Virus record (IMG/VR): IMGVR_UViG_2908567220_000001
Span: 1 to 37,322 of that record
Origin: a virus
Lineage: Duplodnaviria > Heunggongvirae > Uroviricota > Caudoviricetes
Strand: one strand, 5' to 3'
DNA length: 37,322 nt
The notes under the pieces are model-generated. The model did no database searches. It was not told where the DNA came from and saw only the letters and a program-made list of their open reading frames with translations. Positions 14,401-23,975 of this stretch are shown piece by piece. Made by a program: the position numbers and the translations under genes. Positions within the stretch are counted from its first letter, which is position 1. Each line of letters opens with the position of its first letter.

Positions 14401-15023
14401 CATGGTGTTCACAGAACACGCAGTTACCGGACACATCAGTTTTCCATTCGCTCCCCGGCAGTACAGGCTTCCCCTCTGACGGGATAGCCTGAAAAAATAA
14501 CACAGAAAATTATTTGTTATAATTAATATAACTTACTCAAAAAAAAGCGACGAGAAAATCAGCATCAACGAACAATAAGCGCCAATACGTGATAACAAAT
14601 GGCAGCCATATTTATCTGCAGTATAAGCAATGGACAGGATAACCACACCAGAAACCGTCAGCATAAAATCCATTTGAACTTCCCCGAACAAAATCGACTC
14701 ATCTAAAGATTTACAGCTCTTTTTATTATCAATATGTTAAAAGTAAAATAAACAGATGTTCAATAACACGAATACAAAAACGTGCTGAAATTCAATGAAT
14801 CCATTTCTGTGTCATCAATTAATAGTGATAAACATCCGGCTTCTTCCACCATCGCACCGGACAGGCGACTATGAGGGGACAACGCCGCGCTCCGTTAACG
14901 CGGTAAACCCCGGTGTGTATCGTTTTTGATTATCCCCGCACACTCGCGCAGAGGAGTCTCCCTGTCGGGCTGCGGTCTCTGTTAATGAGGGAATACAGCG
15001 ACGATACGGCGCATCAACAAAAC

Positions 15024-15482
15024 TTATTTCAGGCACTGAGTGCGGATATAGTCCTGTGCCCCTTCCAGTTGCTTGTGCATCGTCATCAGCCGCTCTCTGA
15101 GGGTGAAATAATCCCGTGTAACGGTGTCTGCCAGTTGGGGGCCGGTTGCATTATCCACGCCGGAGGTGGTGGGGGCTTCACGCACGGAGCCTGGACAGGT
15201 GGCGTTGATCCGCAGGCGCTTACGACCAGCGGCAACATCAGCGCGCAGAGTTTCATTTTCAGCTCTCGCATCGGATAATTCCCTCGAGTATTTTGCATCG
15301 AGCGCAGCAACATCGCGCTGGCGCACCTGCATATCAGTAATGGTTGCGTTCGCCAGCTTCAGTTCACTGGCTTTGTTATCACGCTGCGCTTTGTAGGTAA
15401 TCGCGTTATCACGGTAATGGTCTGTTGCCATCCACAGCGCACCACAGGCCACCAGCAGAATAACGATAAACGCGGAAAGCAT
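15024..15482 (-). CDS. Rz: i-spanin Rz
   Basis: N-terminal TM segment then coiled-coil ([14 protein letters not shown]...), lambda Rz-like; ATG at 15482 gives 152 aa; alternative GTG at 15497 overlaps the upstream ORF stop. Confidence 0.8.
15086..15271 (-). CDS. Rz1: o-spanin Rz1 lipoprotein, embedded in the +1 frame of Rz
   Basis: [22 protein letters not shown]... lipobox Cys, Pro-rich (PPPPPAW); entirely inside Rz. Confidence 0.75.
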
Positions 15483-15493
15483 TCGGTTTATGT

Positions 15494-15625
15494 TCACCCC
15501 AGCAACCCCGACGAAGACAACATCATCCAGGCCATGGAAAGAAAAAGAGCAACCAGCATTAGTGAAAATGAAATGCCGACAATTACACAGAGGATCTTCG
15601 CCAGCGTTATGAGTTTGTCTGACAT
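15494..15625 (-). CDS. small hydrophobic membrane protein (43 aa), function unknown
   Basis: ATG at 15625 with [45 protein letters not shown]...; stop overlaps the Rz GTG. Confidence 0.5.
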
Positions 15626-15639
15626 GCTTAATCCTCCCT

Positions 15640-15822
15640 TCACGATTTCAACGCAATGACCAGTTTTGCCAGCCCATACAGCATCGGGGACACAGCAACA
15701 CCGACCGCCACCCACTTAATGGCAAAAGCCAGTGCTCTGCTGATGTCATCAGTTACAGGCGCTTTCAGTTCAAGGCCATTTTTCATAGTCAACCTCAACA
15801 GAATTCGTTTATACTTCGCCAT
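15640..15822 (-). CDS. small tail-anchored membrane protein (60 aa), function unknown
   Basis: ATG at 15822 with AGGGAG RBS; basic N-terminus ([11 protein letters not shown]) and C-terminal hydrophobic segment ([22 protein letters not shown]). Confidence 0.5.
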
Positions 15823-15855
15823 GTTCTCCCTTGCCTTACTCAAGGTCAGAAACAC

Positions 15856-15888
15856 AAAACCCCGCTTGGTGCCAACAAACGGGGTTTT
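15856..15888. terminator. hairpin with 9-bp stem (AAAACCCCG / CGGGGTTTT), candidate bidirectional intrinsic terminator or attenuator
   Basis: Perfect 9-bp inverted repeat with 15-nt loop, T-rich tract on the plus side; sits between the endolysin stop and the small membrane genes. Confidence 0.4.
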
Positions 15889-15978
15889 TACTTTTATTCA
15901 CTTACGTTTCGCCAGTTCGCAGGATTTCGTGTTATCCGCCCGCGTGGCCATACCTTATTTTTCAGCAAAATATTCTGC

Positions 15979-16512
15979 TTATCTGTCGATACCCCAGCAC
16001 GCCAGCGCGCTCTCCTGGTCACGACGGGATACCTGACCGTAGCAGTTGTTTGAACGAATACGGCAGTCTCTGCCACCGTCCTTAATCCACCAGCGAATCG
16101 CCTCACACGCTCCCCTGCGATCACCTGCATTAATTCGTTTATAAAACGTCGACGGAAAACACTTACCGGGGCCAATGTTGTACGGACAGAATGACGCGAT
16201 CCCCGCTTTCTGGGGTTCACTCAATGGCACTCTGATGTTTTTCTCCACCCATGCCAGCGCCTTATCACGCTCAATGGCGTTAACCCGGTCGCATTTTTCC
16301 TTCGACAACTTCATGCCCGGAACGACAGGTTTGCCATCCACCAGGATGGCACCGCGGCAGATGGTCCAGATACCCGCGCCATCACGGTATGCCGTGGTGT
16401 GGTTACCTTCCTTTTCATCCAGAAACTGGTCGAGAATGTCAGGCGCAGGCGCACCAGCGGCAATCAGCGCCAGAACGGCAGCCGACAGGCCGTATCTGAT
16501 TTTTGCGTTCAT
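15979..16512 (-). CDS. SAR endolysin (T4-lysozyme-like GH24 muramidase)
   Basis: 177-aa ORF; Ala/Gly-rich N-terminal signal-anchor-release segment (LSAAVLALIAAGAPAP); E...D...T catalytic spacing (KEG, RDG, WTI); downstream of a pinholin. Confidence 0.85.
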   Translation of the reverse strand: MNAKIRYGLSAAVLALIAAGAPAPDILDQFLDEKEGNHTTAYRDGAGIWTICRGAILVDGKPVVPGMKLSKEKCDRVNAIERDKALAWVEKNIRVPLSEPQKAGIASFCPYNIGPGKCFPSTFYKRINAGDRRGACEAIRWWIKDGGRDCRIRSNNCYGQVSRRDQESALACWGIDR

Positions 16513-16617
16513 GGATATTTATCAGGATTTATCGGTTTCTGAGCCCTGGATATGTTTATCAGTTCCAGCCTGTTGCCTCAGGCTGCTAACAGGTCAATAC
16601 AATCATGAGGATTATTT

Positions 16618-16890
16618 ATGGACAATAACACCATTTCTCTACAGGAGTTGCTCGACAGCATTTCCAGGCTTCGGGAAGACGTGAATACCCTTACCGTCGC
16701 CTTCTCATATCTGGCATTCTCAATTCCAAGGGAACAGATGCAATCAACGCTGGCATCAATCCAGTTTGAATCATGCAATCCCAAATGGTCTCAGAAACAA
16801 CAAGACTCTTTCAGGCGGCTTGCTGTATTACTGGATGAAAAATATGCTGGTAAAATTACCATTTCGGCGGACTCTTCAGAGAACCCGTAA
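16618..16890 (+). CDS. hypothetical protein (90 aa), opposite strand inside the lysis cassette
   Basis: ATG at 16618 with GAGG RBS about 7 nt upstream; weak hairpin plus T-run after the stop; no recognised motif. Confidence 0.45.
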   Translation: MDNNTISLQELLDSISRLREDVNTLTVAFSYLAFSIPREQMQSTLASIQFESCNPKWSQKQQDSFRRLAVLLDEKYAGKITISADSSENP

Positions 16891-17200
16891 TTATTCCCGG
16901 TAGTTTTCCTCTGTAGGTTATCAACACATCCTGCGCCTCTAAAATTACGGGGCGCTTTTCCGGCGACTGCTCATCCCCTTCACATAACCCGGCAGCAACA
17001 TCCAGGAAGACCTGTCTGATGCTCCTTCTGGCTGCTGCCTCATAAAACTCCAGCGCGGCACCTTCAACACGGTCCAGCGAGATGTCCAGGTCAAAAATTT
17101 CACCGTCAAAGCGTTTTTTGTCCCGTAACGCTAAAGTTACCGTAACTTTATTCTCAAAATTGCGGATCCCTTTCACAATCAGTTCATAGTTTTGAGTCAT
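16856..17200 (-). CDS. DUF1327-like lysis-cassette protein (YdfR-like)
   Basis: 114-aa ORF directly downstream of the holin; N-terminus MTQNYELIVKGIRNFENKVTV... resembles recalled YdfR-family proteins; C-terminus may be altered. Confidence 0.65.
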   Translation of the reverse strand: MTQNYELIVKGIRNFENKVTVTLALRDKKRFDGEIFDLDISLDRVEGAALEFYEAAARRSIRQVFLDVAAGLCEGDEQSPEKRPVILEAQDVLITYRGKLPGIITGSLKSPPKW

Positions 17201-17204
17201 TGAA

Positions 17205-17420
17205 TTACTCTCCCCGTGCAGCCTTACGCTTGTCTTCTCTGATTTTGAAGTACAGATTTGTCAGATAAGTCAGGAAGCCCAGAACCAGACTCCCCAGCAC
17301 ACCAATCGCAGCCCACTGTGACGGACTGACCTGATCAAGCCACTGTAAAAACCAGTAGCCAGCACTGCCTGCGGAGGTGCCATAGGCAATGCCCGTTGAA
17401 ATTTTGTCCATGGATTTCAT
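17205..17420 (-). CDS. S: pinholin, phage-21 S21 type, dual-start motif
   Basis: 71-aa [66 protein letters not shown]...; matches recalled S21; Met1/Met4 dual start; GGAGG RBS. Confidence 0.9.
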
Positions 17421-17489
17421 AGCCTCACCTCCGCAAATAACGGATGGCGTAGTTTTACACTGAGAAATGAAAGGGATTTGAAAAGAAAA

Positions 17490-17505
17490 GCCCGCAAAAG
17501 CGGGC
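17490..17505 (-). terminator. rho-independent terminator hairpin (GCCCGC-TTTT-GCGGGC plus U-tract on minus strand)
   Basis: Perfect 6-bp GC stem, 4-nt loop, followed on the minus strand by TTTTCTTTTC; between tRNA-Gly and the holin. Confidence 0.6.
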
Positions 17506-17712
17506 GAAACAATATATACAGTAAGGAAAGCACTCTATCCAACAAACCACCCACAGTTAATCGGAATAAAAGCAGAGTGCTTATGAATGATCGCCTGCCC
17601 GAAGGTTAGTATTTCTGCACAGCAATTTTGCTAAAAAAAGCGATCATTCATAACTTAAACGTCTTTCAGTCACTCCGGGATTTCCCATCATCGCAGACTG
17701 AAAGACTCTAAC

Positions 17713-17787
<75 letters not shown>

Positions 17788-17790
17788 ATA

Positions 17791-17866
<76 letters not shown>

Positions 17867-18113
17867 ATTGGTTCTTCAGGGGAGCGATATCACCGAGCAA
17901 AGAAGAGTTCCCCCTCAGAACCGTTTTCGATGATACAATTTAATATTCCAATCGCAACAACACTTTGCGTCAAGCTATGTAAATTTATTTATGTATTTTT
18001 ATTTTATGTGAACATTTCACCTTCACTTAAAATATACGCGACAATATATAAACAAATTTATTTTGAAGGCAATATTAAATGTCGTTTCTTATATCACACC
18101 ACAATAACAACAA

Positions 18114-18133
18114 AACCCGCTTGATGGCGGGTT
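18114..18133 (-). terminator. tR'-like hairpin downstream of the putative late promoter
   Basis: AACCCGC/GCGGGTT 7-bp stem with 6-nt loop, followed on the minus strand by TTGTTGTT; between Q stop and the tRNAs. Confidence 0.45.
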
Positions 18134-18218
18134 CTATTAAAGTTTAATTGCGCTTGATTCGCCTCGCGATACAGCTTTGCGAAGCGTAGCAAAATTGAAG
18201 CAGTTTATGCGTAAAAAA

Positions 18219-18761
18219 TCAAGCCGTTTTTTGAGCGAATGATTCTCGCATGGGAATGTATAGCGCATACTCAGCAACGGCCAACCAATTAGCAATTCGC
18301 TTTTCGCATGTGCTAAAACACCACTCTGGGTGTGCATCATTTAGCAATTCAGCCATTTTGCGTTTGGTCATCCCCCGCCCCTCATACCGTTGCCGAAGGA
18401 CGCTAATCAATCCTGGATGCTCTGCCAGCACCTCACTTATGACTCGATCAATACATAACGCCTCTGCATCAGTACAATGCGCCAGCCAGCTCTTTTGCTT
18501 GCCGTTGATCATCTCTCGCAAAAACGCTTCCAGCTCAGCTTTCTCTATTCCCGCTTTTTTCATTCTGCGCAGGGCTTCATTGATGGCTGTTTTCGTCAAT
18601 TTTTTGGATGCCAACAACTGATTGAACATATTTCCTGACCTGCCACCGCCAATATACGACCAGCGCCCCCACATACGCAGTTTGCCCTGAATCCAGACAC
18701 TTTCCAGCGTGGCGAGACGAAGGTGTTCTCCGCTTTTTCCTGTATTCGTTGGGTAAATCAC
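18219..18761 (-). CDS. late-gene antiterminator, Q-like
   Basis: GTG at 18761 with AGGAGG RBS, coupled to the upstream stop (GTGA); RMWGRWSY motif resembles the W-G-A-W motif of Q-family proteins; sits just upstream of the late region. Confidence 0.6.
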   Translation of the reverse strand: MIYPTNTGKSGEHLRLATLESVWIQGKLRMWGRWSYIGGGRSGNMFNQLLASKKLTKTAINEALRRMKKAGIEKAELEAFLREMINGKQKSWLAHCTDAEALCIDRVISEVLAEHPGLISVLRQRYEGRGMTKRKMAELLNDAHPEWCFSTCEKRIANWLAVAEYALYIPMRESFAQKTA

Positions 18762-19048
18762 AAATATCCCTCCTTTCTCCAGATTTCTTGTGTGCGAAAA
18801 ACACCTTCTGCATGCATCAGGCGTAATTCTTCTTTGGTGTAATCGCTGGTTTTTACCCGCCCGTCGATTAGATCGTGGCATGAGCTACAGGCAATCGCCG
18901 CCTGCATATCGTGTGGTTTTGTCGCTGTTCCGCACGTTCCCGCCAGTCGGTAATGCGCCAGCACAGACGTTTCCGGATCGTGATTGCAGTAGCCAGGAAT
19001 TCTGACGGCGCACATCTGCCCCCGCGCCGCTTTACGTAAATCCACCAT
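18758..19048 (-). CDS. nin-region zinc-binding protein (YbcO/DUF1364-like)
   Basis: 96-aa ORF with Cys pairs (CAVRIPGYC ... CSSCH); coupled to neighbours on both sides (TAATG, GTGA). Confidence 0.7.
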   Translation of the reverse strand: MVDLRKAARGQMCAVRIPGYCNHDPETSVLAHYRLAGTCGTATKPHDMQAAIACSSCHDLIDGRVKTSDYTKEELRLMHAEGVFRTQEIWRKEGYL

Positions 19049-20301: not shown

Positions 20302-21152
20302 ATGTCGACAAAGGCCTATTATTCTATGGATATCATAACAAAAATCATTGAAGACGCTCAAAAATTACAGTTATCCTCTGCAAATGAAGCTGAAACACGC
20401 CTTAAGATCATAGATCAAATACTCTTTGAAGTATTGAAATGGACTAGGGATGATGTATCGGTAGAAACTCGAGTTAGCGAAGATGGCGAGACTACTTTTG
20501 CTGATTATGTCATTAAAACAGCAAGTACTGCGTTTATAATTGAAGCCAAAAAAATTGGTCAGGCATTCGACACAAAACAATTCGATAGGAGACTGAAACT
20601 CAACAACAATAATCTTTCCGGTCCTTTTGGAGATGCCATAATTCAAGCAAGAGATTATTGTAGAAAACTGAGCATTCAATTTGCTGTTGTAACTAATGGT
20701 GAACAATGGGTTATATTCCCAGCAAATAGAACGGATCAAGTTGCATTCAACTCATCTTACGCAATTGTATTTAACAATTTACAAAGTGCACTTAAAGATG
20801 ACTATACAGAATTTTATGACTTATTATCAAGAAAAGCAGTTATAAACTCTAGCCTTGAAGTTACTTTATTAGGCAACAGGGAAGATCAAATAGAAGAAAG
20901 ACGCTTAAAAAATACAGTCCGTAAAAGTATCTCTTATGATGCAAAGAATCCAATATACCCATTAGTCGAAGAAGCAATTATCACTTCATTTTCAGATACA
21001 ATAACAGAAATCGACAATGATCTTTTTGAAAGATGTTATGTAAATACTCCTGACAGGATGAAATTTGATAGGCGTATTAATATGCACATCTCAAAAAGTC
21101 AACACCTCTTTAGTACGGCGCCTATAAGACCGATGCAAAAAAGAGATGCTAA
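20302..21152 (+). pseudogene. 5' fragment of IS5-disrupted gene: HsdR-N-like PD-(D/E)xK nuclease domain
   Basis: AT-rich ORF; motifs ETRLKIIDQILFEVLKW, FADYVIKT, FIIEAKK, QFAVVTNGEQWVIF; frame runs into IS5 and stops 9 codons inside it. Confidence 0.75.
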
Positions 21153-22347
<1,195 letters not shown>

Positions 22348-22351
22348 CTAA

Positions 22352-23975
22352 TGCTTTTAAAGAATCATTATTACGAGCAAAAAAGAATTCAAAACCTTTA
22401 GCTATTGTTATATTAGGAACTGTTGGCGCAGGTAAAACCACATTTTTACATTACACACGAAATATATCTGCCGCATCGTATTTCGAAAAATCAAATAATA
22501 AACCCTATCCTCATTGGATAAAGGTGGATTTTTTACAATACACGAATGACGAGTCCCCTATAGACTACATTTATAATATAATAAAAAACTATATTATAAG
22601 TGATCCATTTTTTTGCAATTATGAGCTATGCATACAGAACGCATACAAAGATGAGATAACTTCTATAAAAAAAGGACCTGCATTTCTTATTGCGAAGGAT
22701 GAAGAAAAAATCAATCAACTAATTACAAACAAGCTACAAGCTGATTTTGACAAAGTTAAGCCATATGCTGATACTTTAATCAGCTATGCAACGAAAAACA
22801 CACCTGTTTTTCTTGTTGTGGATAACGTTGATCAACTCAGCGAAGAAGTCCAATCTCAAATTTTCACTGATTGTGTAGCATTTTCCCAGAGACTCAAATG
22901 TAATCTTGTTATATCATTACGTAATTCTACATATGTTGAACACCGTAACTCCCCAGCGTTTAACGCATTTGATTTCGATCCTATTCTTATTGAACCACCA
23001 AAAGTAGAGGCTGTTTTATCTAAACGTTTTTTCTTAGCCAAAAATATGCTTGAAGGAGAAGAAGGTGATTTTCTTTCAGATAATGGGATAAGATTTCACG
23101 TTGATAACAAAGCCGATTTAATAAGCTTATTACAAAGCTCTGTTTTAGGAACAGAAATCGGCAATTTACTTGAAGTACTTGCTGCCGGAGACATCAGAAA
23201 TGCACTAAGAATGACAAGAGAATTTATTGAACATGGTTATACAAATCCAGGTAAAGCTATGCGAATATATAGTGAAGGTGGCAACTATATATTGCCTAAG
23301 CATGAGGCTCTCAGAGCGATACTGCTAGGGAACCAAGCTGTATATTCAGAGGCTTATTCATTGGTTGGCAACCCATTTGATTCAAGACTGGGAAGGACCA
23401 ACTTCCAACTTTTGAGACTATTCGTTTTAGCAGCATTAGTCCAATATAGTGCTGATCCTGCATTTCAATATATCGACGGAATTGACATCCGAAAACAACT
23501 TAGAAAAATTGGTGTCGGTGATGATGACTCAATTGCCATACTGCGTGATTTATGTAAATTACGCTTTATAAGCACGGCTGGTCATGATGTACCAGAATTC
23601 AAATCAAGTTTTTATCCTACAAGACTTGGGGGATATATTACTAAGGAGCTAATCAGTAATTTTACATTTGTTGAATGTACTATGATGGACTCATTCATTG
23701 CGAACGAAAAAGTTTGGGAAGATCTAAAAGGATTTGAACGTTTAATTATAAACTCCTCCAGCGATGTAATCAAAAGACTAGAATATAGAAAGGAACGAGC
23801 ACAAATATTTTTTGATTATATGCTAGAACTATATAGTTCGCTGCTTGAGGAAGCCAATAAACGTGTATTACCTAAAGAATGGCGCACCAATCCTTTGCAG
23901 GAAGCTAGATATTCCTTCATTGAAAATCTAAACAAAGCCCTGCAATCAGCACAGAGAAATTACGGGGAAAAATAA
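22352..23975 (+). pseudogene. 3' fragment of IS5-disrupted gene: P-loop NTPase plus C-terminal helical domain
   Basis: In frame with the 5' fragment once IS5 and one CTAA copy are removed; Walker A GTVGAGKTT (22416-22442); Walker B-like VFLVVDNVDQ; AT-rich; terminator follows the stop. Confidence 0.75.

Follow-up and report, generated by a model that had tools for sequence, protein, structure and literature searches.

ORF90, a predicted protein-coding gene antisense to the lysis operon of a lambdoid prophage, and its convergent partner

What a small open reading frame is doing on the strand opposite to the lysis genes of a prophage is the question raised by the locus described here. The window, as we call the whole stretch of DNA that was analyzed (37,322 nt), has the overall character of a lambdoid prophage of the E. 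coli type. A sequence-only reading had drawn attention to a 90-codon plus-strand frame (ORF90) lying between the DUF1327-like gene and the endolysin gene, had credited it with a good ribosome-binding site and an AT-rich setting, and had suggested that its overlap with the DUF1327-like gene marked an insertion that remodelled the C-terminus of that gene. We found the frame as described, with an ATG start preceded at 6 nt by a GAGGA box (Table 1), and the corresponding AAGGA/GAGGA box was situated at an equal distance from the start in all relatives compared. The holin, YdfR, lysozyme, and Rz/Rz1 genes are all on the minus strand, so that ORF90 does lie antisense within the lysis operon, and its end overlaps the 3′ end of the DUF1327-like gene by 35 nt (16856-16890). 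The segment is indeed richer in AT (GC of 0.437 at 16600-16899 vs 0.47-0.55 in the flanks); the difference is modest, and the composition is unlike that of the neighboring genes, as is the case for morons. The inverted repeat CCTGTT/AACAGG that had been noted upstream was present but was not conserved in diverged copies; it is one of seven comparable short repeats within 511 nt and, to judge from these comparisons, is probably not a feature in itself. The better repeat CAGCCTG/CAGGCTG (16566-16572 and 16579-16585) overlaps it. Inspection of the CTGT..ACAG repeat as a possible LexA box led to rejection of that assignment, the spacing being 15 nt and not 8.

The minus-strand gene order begins with a gene for a Q-like antiterminator and closes, after Rz/Rz1, with the terminase genes (Nu1/gpA). 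The product of the convergent ydfR gene scored 145 bits against PF07041, for which the gathering cut-off is 25, and thus belongs to the DUF1327 family. Two tRNA genes, tRNA-Gly(tcc) at 17713-17787 (−) and tRNA-Thr(tgt) at 17791-17866 (−), separate the Q-like antiterminator gene from the holin gene, and related prophages carry Arg, Ile, or Met tRNAs at this site. The lysozyme gene is followed by a terminator-like hairpin (15856-15888, −), and directly behind it, between lysozyme and Rz, is a 71-aa ORF (15640-15855, −) with one hydrophobic segment and a match to PHROG 1115 (E = 1e-46), which looks like a second small insert of the lysis cassette. The lysis region is flanked by two AT-rich stretches (14500-14800, GC 0.32; 17800-18250, GC 0.34-0.36), neither of which holds a convincing long ORF. 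Past the nin-like genes lies a plus-strand island (20302-23975) that encodes an HSDR_N-like protein (20302-21180), an IS5-type DDE transposase (21221-22201), and a 483-aa ORF product (22524-23975) for which no Pfam match was found.

Table 1. Positions of ORF90, its candidate signals, and the neighboring late genes in the window
Feature	Position	Strand	Remarks
Conserved block CCCTGGATATGTT with −10-like TATGTT (16551-16556)	16544-16556	+	candidate ORF90 promoter element
5′ stem-loop CAGCCTG-N6-CAGGCTG	16566-16585	+	probably at the 5′ end of the ORF90 mRNA; folding and covariation
Inverted repeat CCTGTT/AACAGG	16569-16574 and 16588-16593		1-2 uncompensated mismatches in L003, L004, L005, and L008
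Shine-Dalgarno GAGGA	16607-16611	+	6 nt 5′ of the ATG
ORF90 coding sequence	16618-16890	+	90 aa, ATG start; PHROG 2411; "Ybl58"/hypothetical protein
Terminator-like hairpin GCGCCTC-N9-GGGGCGC plus TTTT	16933-16959	+	43-69 nt past the ORF90 stop, inside the ydfR tail
Apparent extent of the cassette moving as a unit (ORF90 upstream block, ORF90, partner tail with terminator-like hairpin)	16513-16990		both homology edges
Rz/Rz1	15024-15497 and 15086-15313	−	downstream of lysozyme
SAR-type phage lysozyme	15979-16512	−	PF00959; SAR-like hydrophobic stretch at the N-terminus
YdfR/DUF1327, 114 aa	16856-17200	−	PF07041, E = 7e-43
YdfR114 tail, residues ~70-114 (..EKRPVILEAQDVLITYRGKLPGIITGSLKSPPKW)	16856-16990	−	homology to the convergent partner family
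YdfR N-domain, residues 1-~70	16991-17200	−	homologous to K-12 YdfR
S21-type class II holin	17205-17420	−	PF04971
tRNA-Thr and tRNA-Gly	17713-17866	−	next after the Q-like gene
Q-like antiterminator gene (DUF1133/Phage_antitermQ)	18219-18881	−	first in transcription order

Coding evidence, family, and predicted protein

The translated frame matched PHROG 2411 over its whole length (E = 2.1e-58; residues 1-90 on profile positions 1-90 of 90). Its exact sequence is found in public records, one of which names it "Ybl58" (UniProt A0A2H4TLL4), and RefSeq annotates it as a hypothetical protein (WP_000369850.1, strain CE10); PHROG 2411, Ybl58, and WP_000369850.1 are the same protein family as ORF90, with no difference. 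The databases already list ORF90 as a hypothetical protein and in a PHROG that has no assigned function, and it is not a new kind of system. Searches of the literature library used here returned no paper on it. Scans of ORF90 and of its convergent partner against Pfam, NCBIfam, and PADLOC gave no match, and the PHROGs scan of both gave only function-less families.

Of 5,426 complete E. coli genomes, 1,117 (roughly a fifth) carried the 388-nt segment almost in its entirety, and these copies fell into two main classes of identity (≥99% and 80-90%). Across five copies whose proteins are 71-87% identical (the diverged copies with an intact ORF90 include L003, L004, L005, and L008), the start, stop, and length of the plus-strand frame were constant. 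In the antisense frame with which ORF90 has wobble positions in common (68 codons in the window), stops occurred at varying places among the diverged copies. Pairwise dN/dS values for ORF90 were 0.17-0.38, but neither these values nor counts by codon position can separate the plus-strand frame from the wobble-sharing one, and we therefore relied on the integrity of the ORF and on its distant homologs as evidence for coding. The shared wobble and the resulting ambiguity of periodicity and dN/dS between the strands are what speak for a chance, noncoding antisense frame; set against this, only the plus-strand frame is open in all variants, its PHROG match is full-length, and the family keeps its length and motifs across genera and contexts, so that we consider such a reading to have almost no chance of being correct. 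The comparisons show purifying selection acting on the plus-strand frame, and by the same sequence evidence ORF90 is a genuine conserved protein-coding gene.

The homology search that had been proposed for the 90-aa protein was productive. It recovered 60 close and 62 distant homologs, and a profile search of 1.8 billion representatives detected full-length relatives. The profile searches as a whole gave relatives of ~90 aa with identities of 24-60%. These occur across the Enterobacterales, in Citrobacter, Atlantibacter, Yersinia, many Serratia species, Sodalis, Chania, Gibbsiella, and Acerihabitans, and they have in common the motif ELL..I..LR.(D/E)VN.L..AF.YL.F ... ES.N. The prospect that the ORF might prove not to be conserved was thus not borne out, the frame being kept in diverged copies and having distant homologs. 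A scan of viral contigs yielded near-identical copies only, and an apparent distant homolog, "P0059 ybl58" (44% identity), was set aside because it is actually a frameshifted copy. Many ORF90 alleles are truncated or frameshifted, as expected for decaying prophages, which implies that the gene is dispensable.

The AlphaFold2 model of ORF90 is a three-helix bundle (pLDDT of 81). The structure search suggested at the outset gave a model but no informative match: fold searches with it returned nothing specific and a profile search of PDB sequences with ORF90 retrieved nothing at E ≤ 10. Neither a signal peptide nor a hydrophobic stretch of transmembrane length is present in the sequence; the product is small, slightly acidic, and cytoplasmic. 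No enzymatic or DNA-binding signature was detected in it. Most likely ORF90 acts by binding another protein, a guess from the size and shape of the modelled product.

The indel, the convergent partner, and the mobile cassette

The segment is not colinear with Qin-type lysis cassettes, in keeping with the insertion that had been suspected. The ydfR gene of K-12 Qin (103 aa) overlaps the rrrQ start codon directly and ORF90 is absent there; homology between the window and Qin stops at ~17000 (YdfR residue ~67) and restarts a few bases before the lysozyme ATG. Another arrangement common in E. coli, that of the YdfR116 variant, has 21 nt in place of window positions 16567-16860, and the distance between YdfR116 and lysozyme is 63 nt in L110-L113. 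These alignments show that the ORF90 segment is an indel relative to related lysis cassettes, and the genes on its two sides are adjacent in K-12 Qin and in L110-L113, which is the position expected of a moron. The forms that lack ORF90 look like deletions, because L110 retains the upstream block of the cassette and a Salmonella locus (L120) retains a fragment of ORF90. In this Salmonella enterica prophage (L120, 3158-3421) the leader and the final ~25 codons of ORF90 (..QQNSFKHLAKELEERLGSSITIL) are fused; the internally deleted ORF90 adjoins an intact partner gene of 63 aa, and a different 83-aa gene comes next, before the holin.

The YdfR C-terminus is indeed altered by the segment, but the altered part is the tail of a conserved family and not insertion debris. 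The C-terminal 45 residues of YdfR114 are unlike those of K-12 YdfR. In the prophage loci examined, from E. coli, Citrobacter, Yersinia, Atlantibacter, unassigned contigs, and Serratia ficaria, ORF90 is convergent with a gene on the operon strand, with a 3′ overlap of 7-47 nt, and the product of this partner ends in ..[ST]xKGx..I[TF]G[SD]L..P.. (conserved tail ..KLPGIITGSLKSPPKW). The match to this motif is doubtful for the convergent 59-aa ORF of Serratia ficaria. The partners of Citrobacter, Atlantibacter, Yersinia, and two unassigned contigs stand alone as proteins of 61-71 aa and in most cases have a coiled coil at the N-terminus; the tail forms the end of a 238-aa protein in C. meridianamericanus and the last ~40-45 residues of the 114-aa YdfR in E. 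coli (LITYRGKLPGIITGSLKSPPKW). The ITGSL codons of E. coli and Citrobacter differ synonymously (ACG/ACC, TCT/TCG, and CTG/TTA), which argues that the tail is selected as a peptide and not only as DNA. By these homologies ORF90 and the ITGSL tail are one older cassette, which in E. coli is fused to the YdfR N-domain, and this fusion would explain the altered YdfR C-terminus.

The ITGSL module lies at 16856-16990 (−) in the window, 4239-4430 in L106, 5261-5476 in L099, 4206-4421 in L014, and 4239-4955 in L013; its C-terminal ..KGx..ITGSL..P.. tail is preceded in most copies by a short coiled coil, and it occurs alone (61-71 aa) or fused to YdfR or to a 160-aa domain lacking annotation. No Pfam or PHROG family was found for it. 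SlyX was considered as an identity for the 71-aa partners on account of similar length, coiled coil, and PP.Y ending (SlyX also binds RNase E) and was dropped, since there was no Pfam SlyX match. The window protein shares its first ~70 residues with the YdfR/DUF1327 protein of the cryptic prophage Qin but has a different C-terminus of ~45 residues (the ITGSL..P tail), and ORF90 itself is unrelated to YdfR. Residues 1-72 of K-12 YdfR bind the N-terminal (catalytic) half of RNase E and may bind RNA (PMC13232886). By analogy, a connection to RNA turnover through YdfR and RNase E is conceivable.

Each of the two genes also occurs alone. The tail is kept in YdfR116 without ORF90, ORF90 is intact beside a truncated ydfR in L008-L011, and no partner accompanies the chromosomal ORF90 homologs of Serratia, Sodalis, and an environmental lineage. 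Such persistence argues against an addictive toxin-antitoxin relationship, and a type II toxin-antitoxin pair was rejected on the further grounds that the genes are convergent rather than co-directional and that no toxin-antitoxin or defense profile was matched. The prophage of L008-L010, which lacks most of ydfR, carries a ParD-like/ParE-like pair and a Rha/ORF11CD3 gene directly downstream of lysozyme (L008 2589-3123 and 1845-2393).

The two edges of homology delimit what appears to move as a unit. The start codon of the following late gene marks the left edge (junction in L005), and the break in homology to K-12 ydfR at ~17000 marks the right one. In phiSTEC1575-Stx2k a different module, made up of two holins and an M15 peptidase, comes after the YdfR114-ORF90 pair, with the junction exactly at the position of the window's lysozyme start codon. 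E. coli loci carry the cassette between holin/YdfR and endolysin, and Citrobacter loci carry it upstream of the holin. In Atlantibacter it separates tail genes M and L, in Yersinia it follows tail gene I, an unassigned contig has it next to the terminase genes, and Serratia ficaria has it in a prophage early region. The homolog of several Serratia species belongs to the core chromosome (gene order pyrC-dinI-ORF92-bssS-solA), and in Sodalis it is a stand-alone chromosomal gene. The Serratia chromosomal copies at 5001-5279 of L095-L097 lie between dinI and bssS, are preceded by the dinI terminator, and have no convergent partner. Because the cassette also resides in tail operons and at other sites, its placement in the lysis operon of the window is incidental, and on this distribution the role of ORF90 is not specific to lysis.

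Candidate transcription signals

A block of the form CCCTGG(A/T)TATG(T/A)T upstream of ORF90 is common to the E. coli, Citrobacter, and Atlantibacter loci despite their different neighboring genes, and its −10-like box reads CAGGTT in L110, which lacks ORF90. No convincing −35 element was seen upstream of ORF90, where a consensus promoter scan was silent. A sigma-28-like CCGATAA upstream of lysozyme was rejected upon inspection, there being no matching −35 at the right spacing. A hairpin a few bases past the −10-like block was predicted in all 10 loci that were folded. The sequences of these leader hairpins are nearly all different and the pairing is kept (for example, CGCCAGTG/CACTGGCG, CGACTGTG/CACAGTCG, and ATCCATG/CATGGAT). 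In an alignment of 13 sequences, 90% of the cells were paired and seven of the eight pairs had changes on both sides, counts that are inflated by the manual registration of the alignment on the hairpins, with the E. coli register the least certain; the covariation score was reached by none of 500 shuffles. Four G·U vs two A·C cells weakly favor the plus-strand RNA. The loci outside E. coli have a second leader hairpin with GGCUGAUWA in its loop. Two-hairpin leaders were located at 173-255 of L006, 3924-4006 of L106, 3927-4006 of L013, 4929-5006 of L099, 1197-1274 of L116, 3923-4006 of L108, and 3912-3994 of L014, with strong covariation of the first hairpin, and even the Serratia chromosomal copy is preceded by traces of the leader (AACCCGCCA ... 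GCTGGAATAAAAAC). A search of 15500-18000 with Rfam 15 brought only the two tRNAs to the gathering score, with no match over 16513-16960; three other matches (E ≤ 1) were sub-threshold and were located at 15824-15898 or antisense to the tRNAs.

The terminator-like hairpin downstream of ORF90 lies within the ydfR tail codons for EKRPVILEAQ. With its upstream context it has a predicted ΔG of −12 to −15 kcal/mol in the window, L003, L004, and L012, and plus-strand hairpins of this type follow ORF90 in E. coli, Citrobacter, and Yersinia loci. The homologous site of Citrobacter L106 (4347-4374) passed the terminator scan; a strict scan of the window left the hairpin unflagged (9-nt loop and a T-run of four), and no comparable hairpin was found in L005, L007, L099, L101, L108, or the chromosomal copies. 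If this hairpin is the ORF90 terminator, then the 3′ end of the unit would lie within the last ~40 codons of the partner, and the two would be inherited jointly.

Explanations of the cassette and their meaning

On the anatomy described above, we consider it reasonably probable that ORF90 is a self-contained, moron-like transcription unit directed against late transcription in a lambdoid prophage. Transcription would start at ~16563, a few bases after the −10-like TATGTT, the mRNA would open with a stabilizing 5′ stem-loop, and the transcript would end at the hairpin and T-run within the ydfR tail. The orientation of the unit against the late operon suggests probable expression in the lysogen, where the prophage is repressed, and a shut-off by convergent Q-dependent late transcription in lytic growth; the predicted mRNA would be complementary over ~100 nt to the 3′ end of ydfR and would also lie antisense to the junction of ydfR and lysozyme. 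From anatomy only, we infer a lysogen-expressed protein binder. Morons of lambdoid phages were reportedly defined by Hendrix and colleagues for HK97 and lambda, and examples are HK97 gp15 and lambda bor and lom. Like these, ORF90 is one small gene flanked by late genes that adjoin each other in related phages, its GC content is below that of its neighbors, it has its own candidate promoter and a terminator-like hairpin, it resides at different places in different phages, and, by analogy, it is likely expressed from the prophage. It differs from them in that the promoter and terminator are weakly supported and the unit is antisense to the operon, in that its 3′ end lies inside the coding tail of a convergent gene so that it moves as a two-part cassette, and in that related copies are core chromosomal genes in Serratia.

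The main rival to the moron-like unit holds that ORF90 and the ITGSL-tail protein form a two-protein module in which ORF90, made in the lysogen, binds or neutralizes its late partner, the overlap rendering their expression mutually exclusive. We regard this as rather unlikely. The recurrence of a convergent partner with a short 3′ overlap in prophage loci of at least four genera, the preservation of the tail motif as protein through synonymous changes, and the fusion of the partner to different N-domains with its position relative to ORF90 unchanged are all consistent with such a module, but YdfR116 does without ORF90, the Salmonella partner stands beside an internally deleted ORF90, L008 has an intact ORF90 next to a ydfR remnant, the chromosomal homologs are partnerless, and an ORF90 terminator inside the tail would also account for the linkage. 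Another explanation makes the RNA the important product and the ORF secondary: through transcriptional interference or through cleavage by RNase III, the antisense transcript would damp leaky expression of late or lysis genes in the lysogen. The inferred transcript (~16563-16959) would be complementary to a stretch of late mRNA that begins at ydfR codon ~80 and ends 50 nt before the lysozyme start, the unit is always antisense to the surrounding late operon, and its structured 5′ end is conserved; the protein, however, is conserved down to ~25% identity with constant length, even in chromosomal copies that have no antisense target, and dN/dS is well below 1, and we judge this explanation to be quite improbable. 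Lambda OOP, a 77-nt noncoding RNA that acts on the 3′ end of cII, offers a comparison. It too is a short convergent unit overlapping the 3′ end of a phage gene, so that antisense control is possible, but the ORF90 transcript encodes a conserved protein and an RNA-level effect here is only hypothetical. An antisense role could exist in addition to the ORF90 protein, and the two-protein and antisense-RNA explanations are not mutually exclusive.

A function of ORF90 as a lysis regulator of the holin-endolysin cassette, either antiholin-like or as a lysis-timing factor, would agree with its location inside or beside lysis cassettes in E. coli and Citrobacter. It lies on the strand opposite to the lysis genes, however, its product has no membrane-spanning stretch or signal peptide and is modelled as an all-helical bundle, the cassette also occurs within tail operons, close to terminase, in a prophage early region, and on core chromosomes, and common related cassettes lack ORF90; we view this function as very improbable and, on sequence distribution, as largely refuted. 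A holin/antiholin-type regulator was rejected for the same lack of a membrane segment, opposite strand, and occurrence outside lysis cassettes. A long shot that joins several of these elements is a conserved convergent module of two genes in temperate phages, in which a small late effector, in E. coli fused to the RNase E-binding N-domain of YdfR, would be antagonized at the protein and/or antisense-RNA level by a lysogeny-expressed three-helix protein whose mRNA would have a conserved structured leader (the covarying 5′ hairpin and the second hairpin with the GGCUGAUWA loop); if true, this would be an undescribed lysogeny/lysis toggle linked to RNA turnover.

In the moron-like unit that we favor, nothing is unusual apart from the convergent partner, which recurs, and the leader, which covaries. 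The finding settles a hypothetical protein of roughly a fifth of complete E. coli genomes as a real, selected gene, and it explains the differing YdfR C-termini, which adds little on its own. The pairing with the ITGSL tail, the covarying structured leader, and the orthologs beside dinI in the Serratia core chromosome provide handles on its function.
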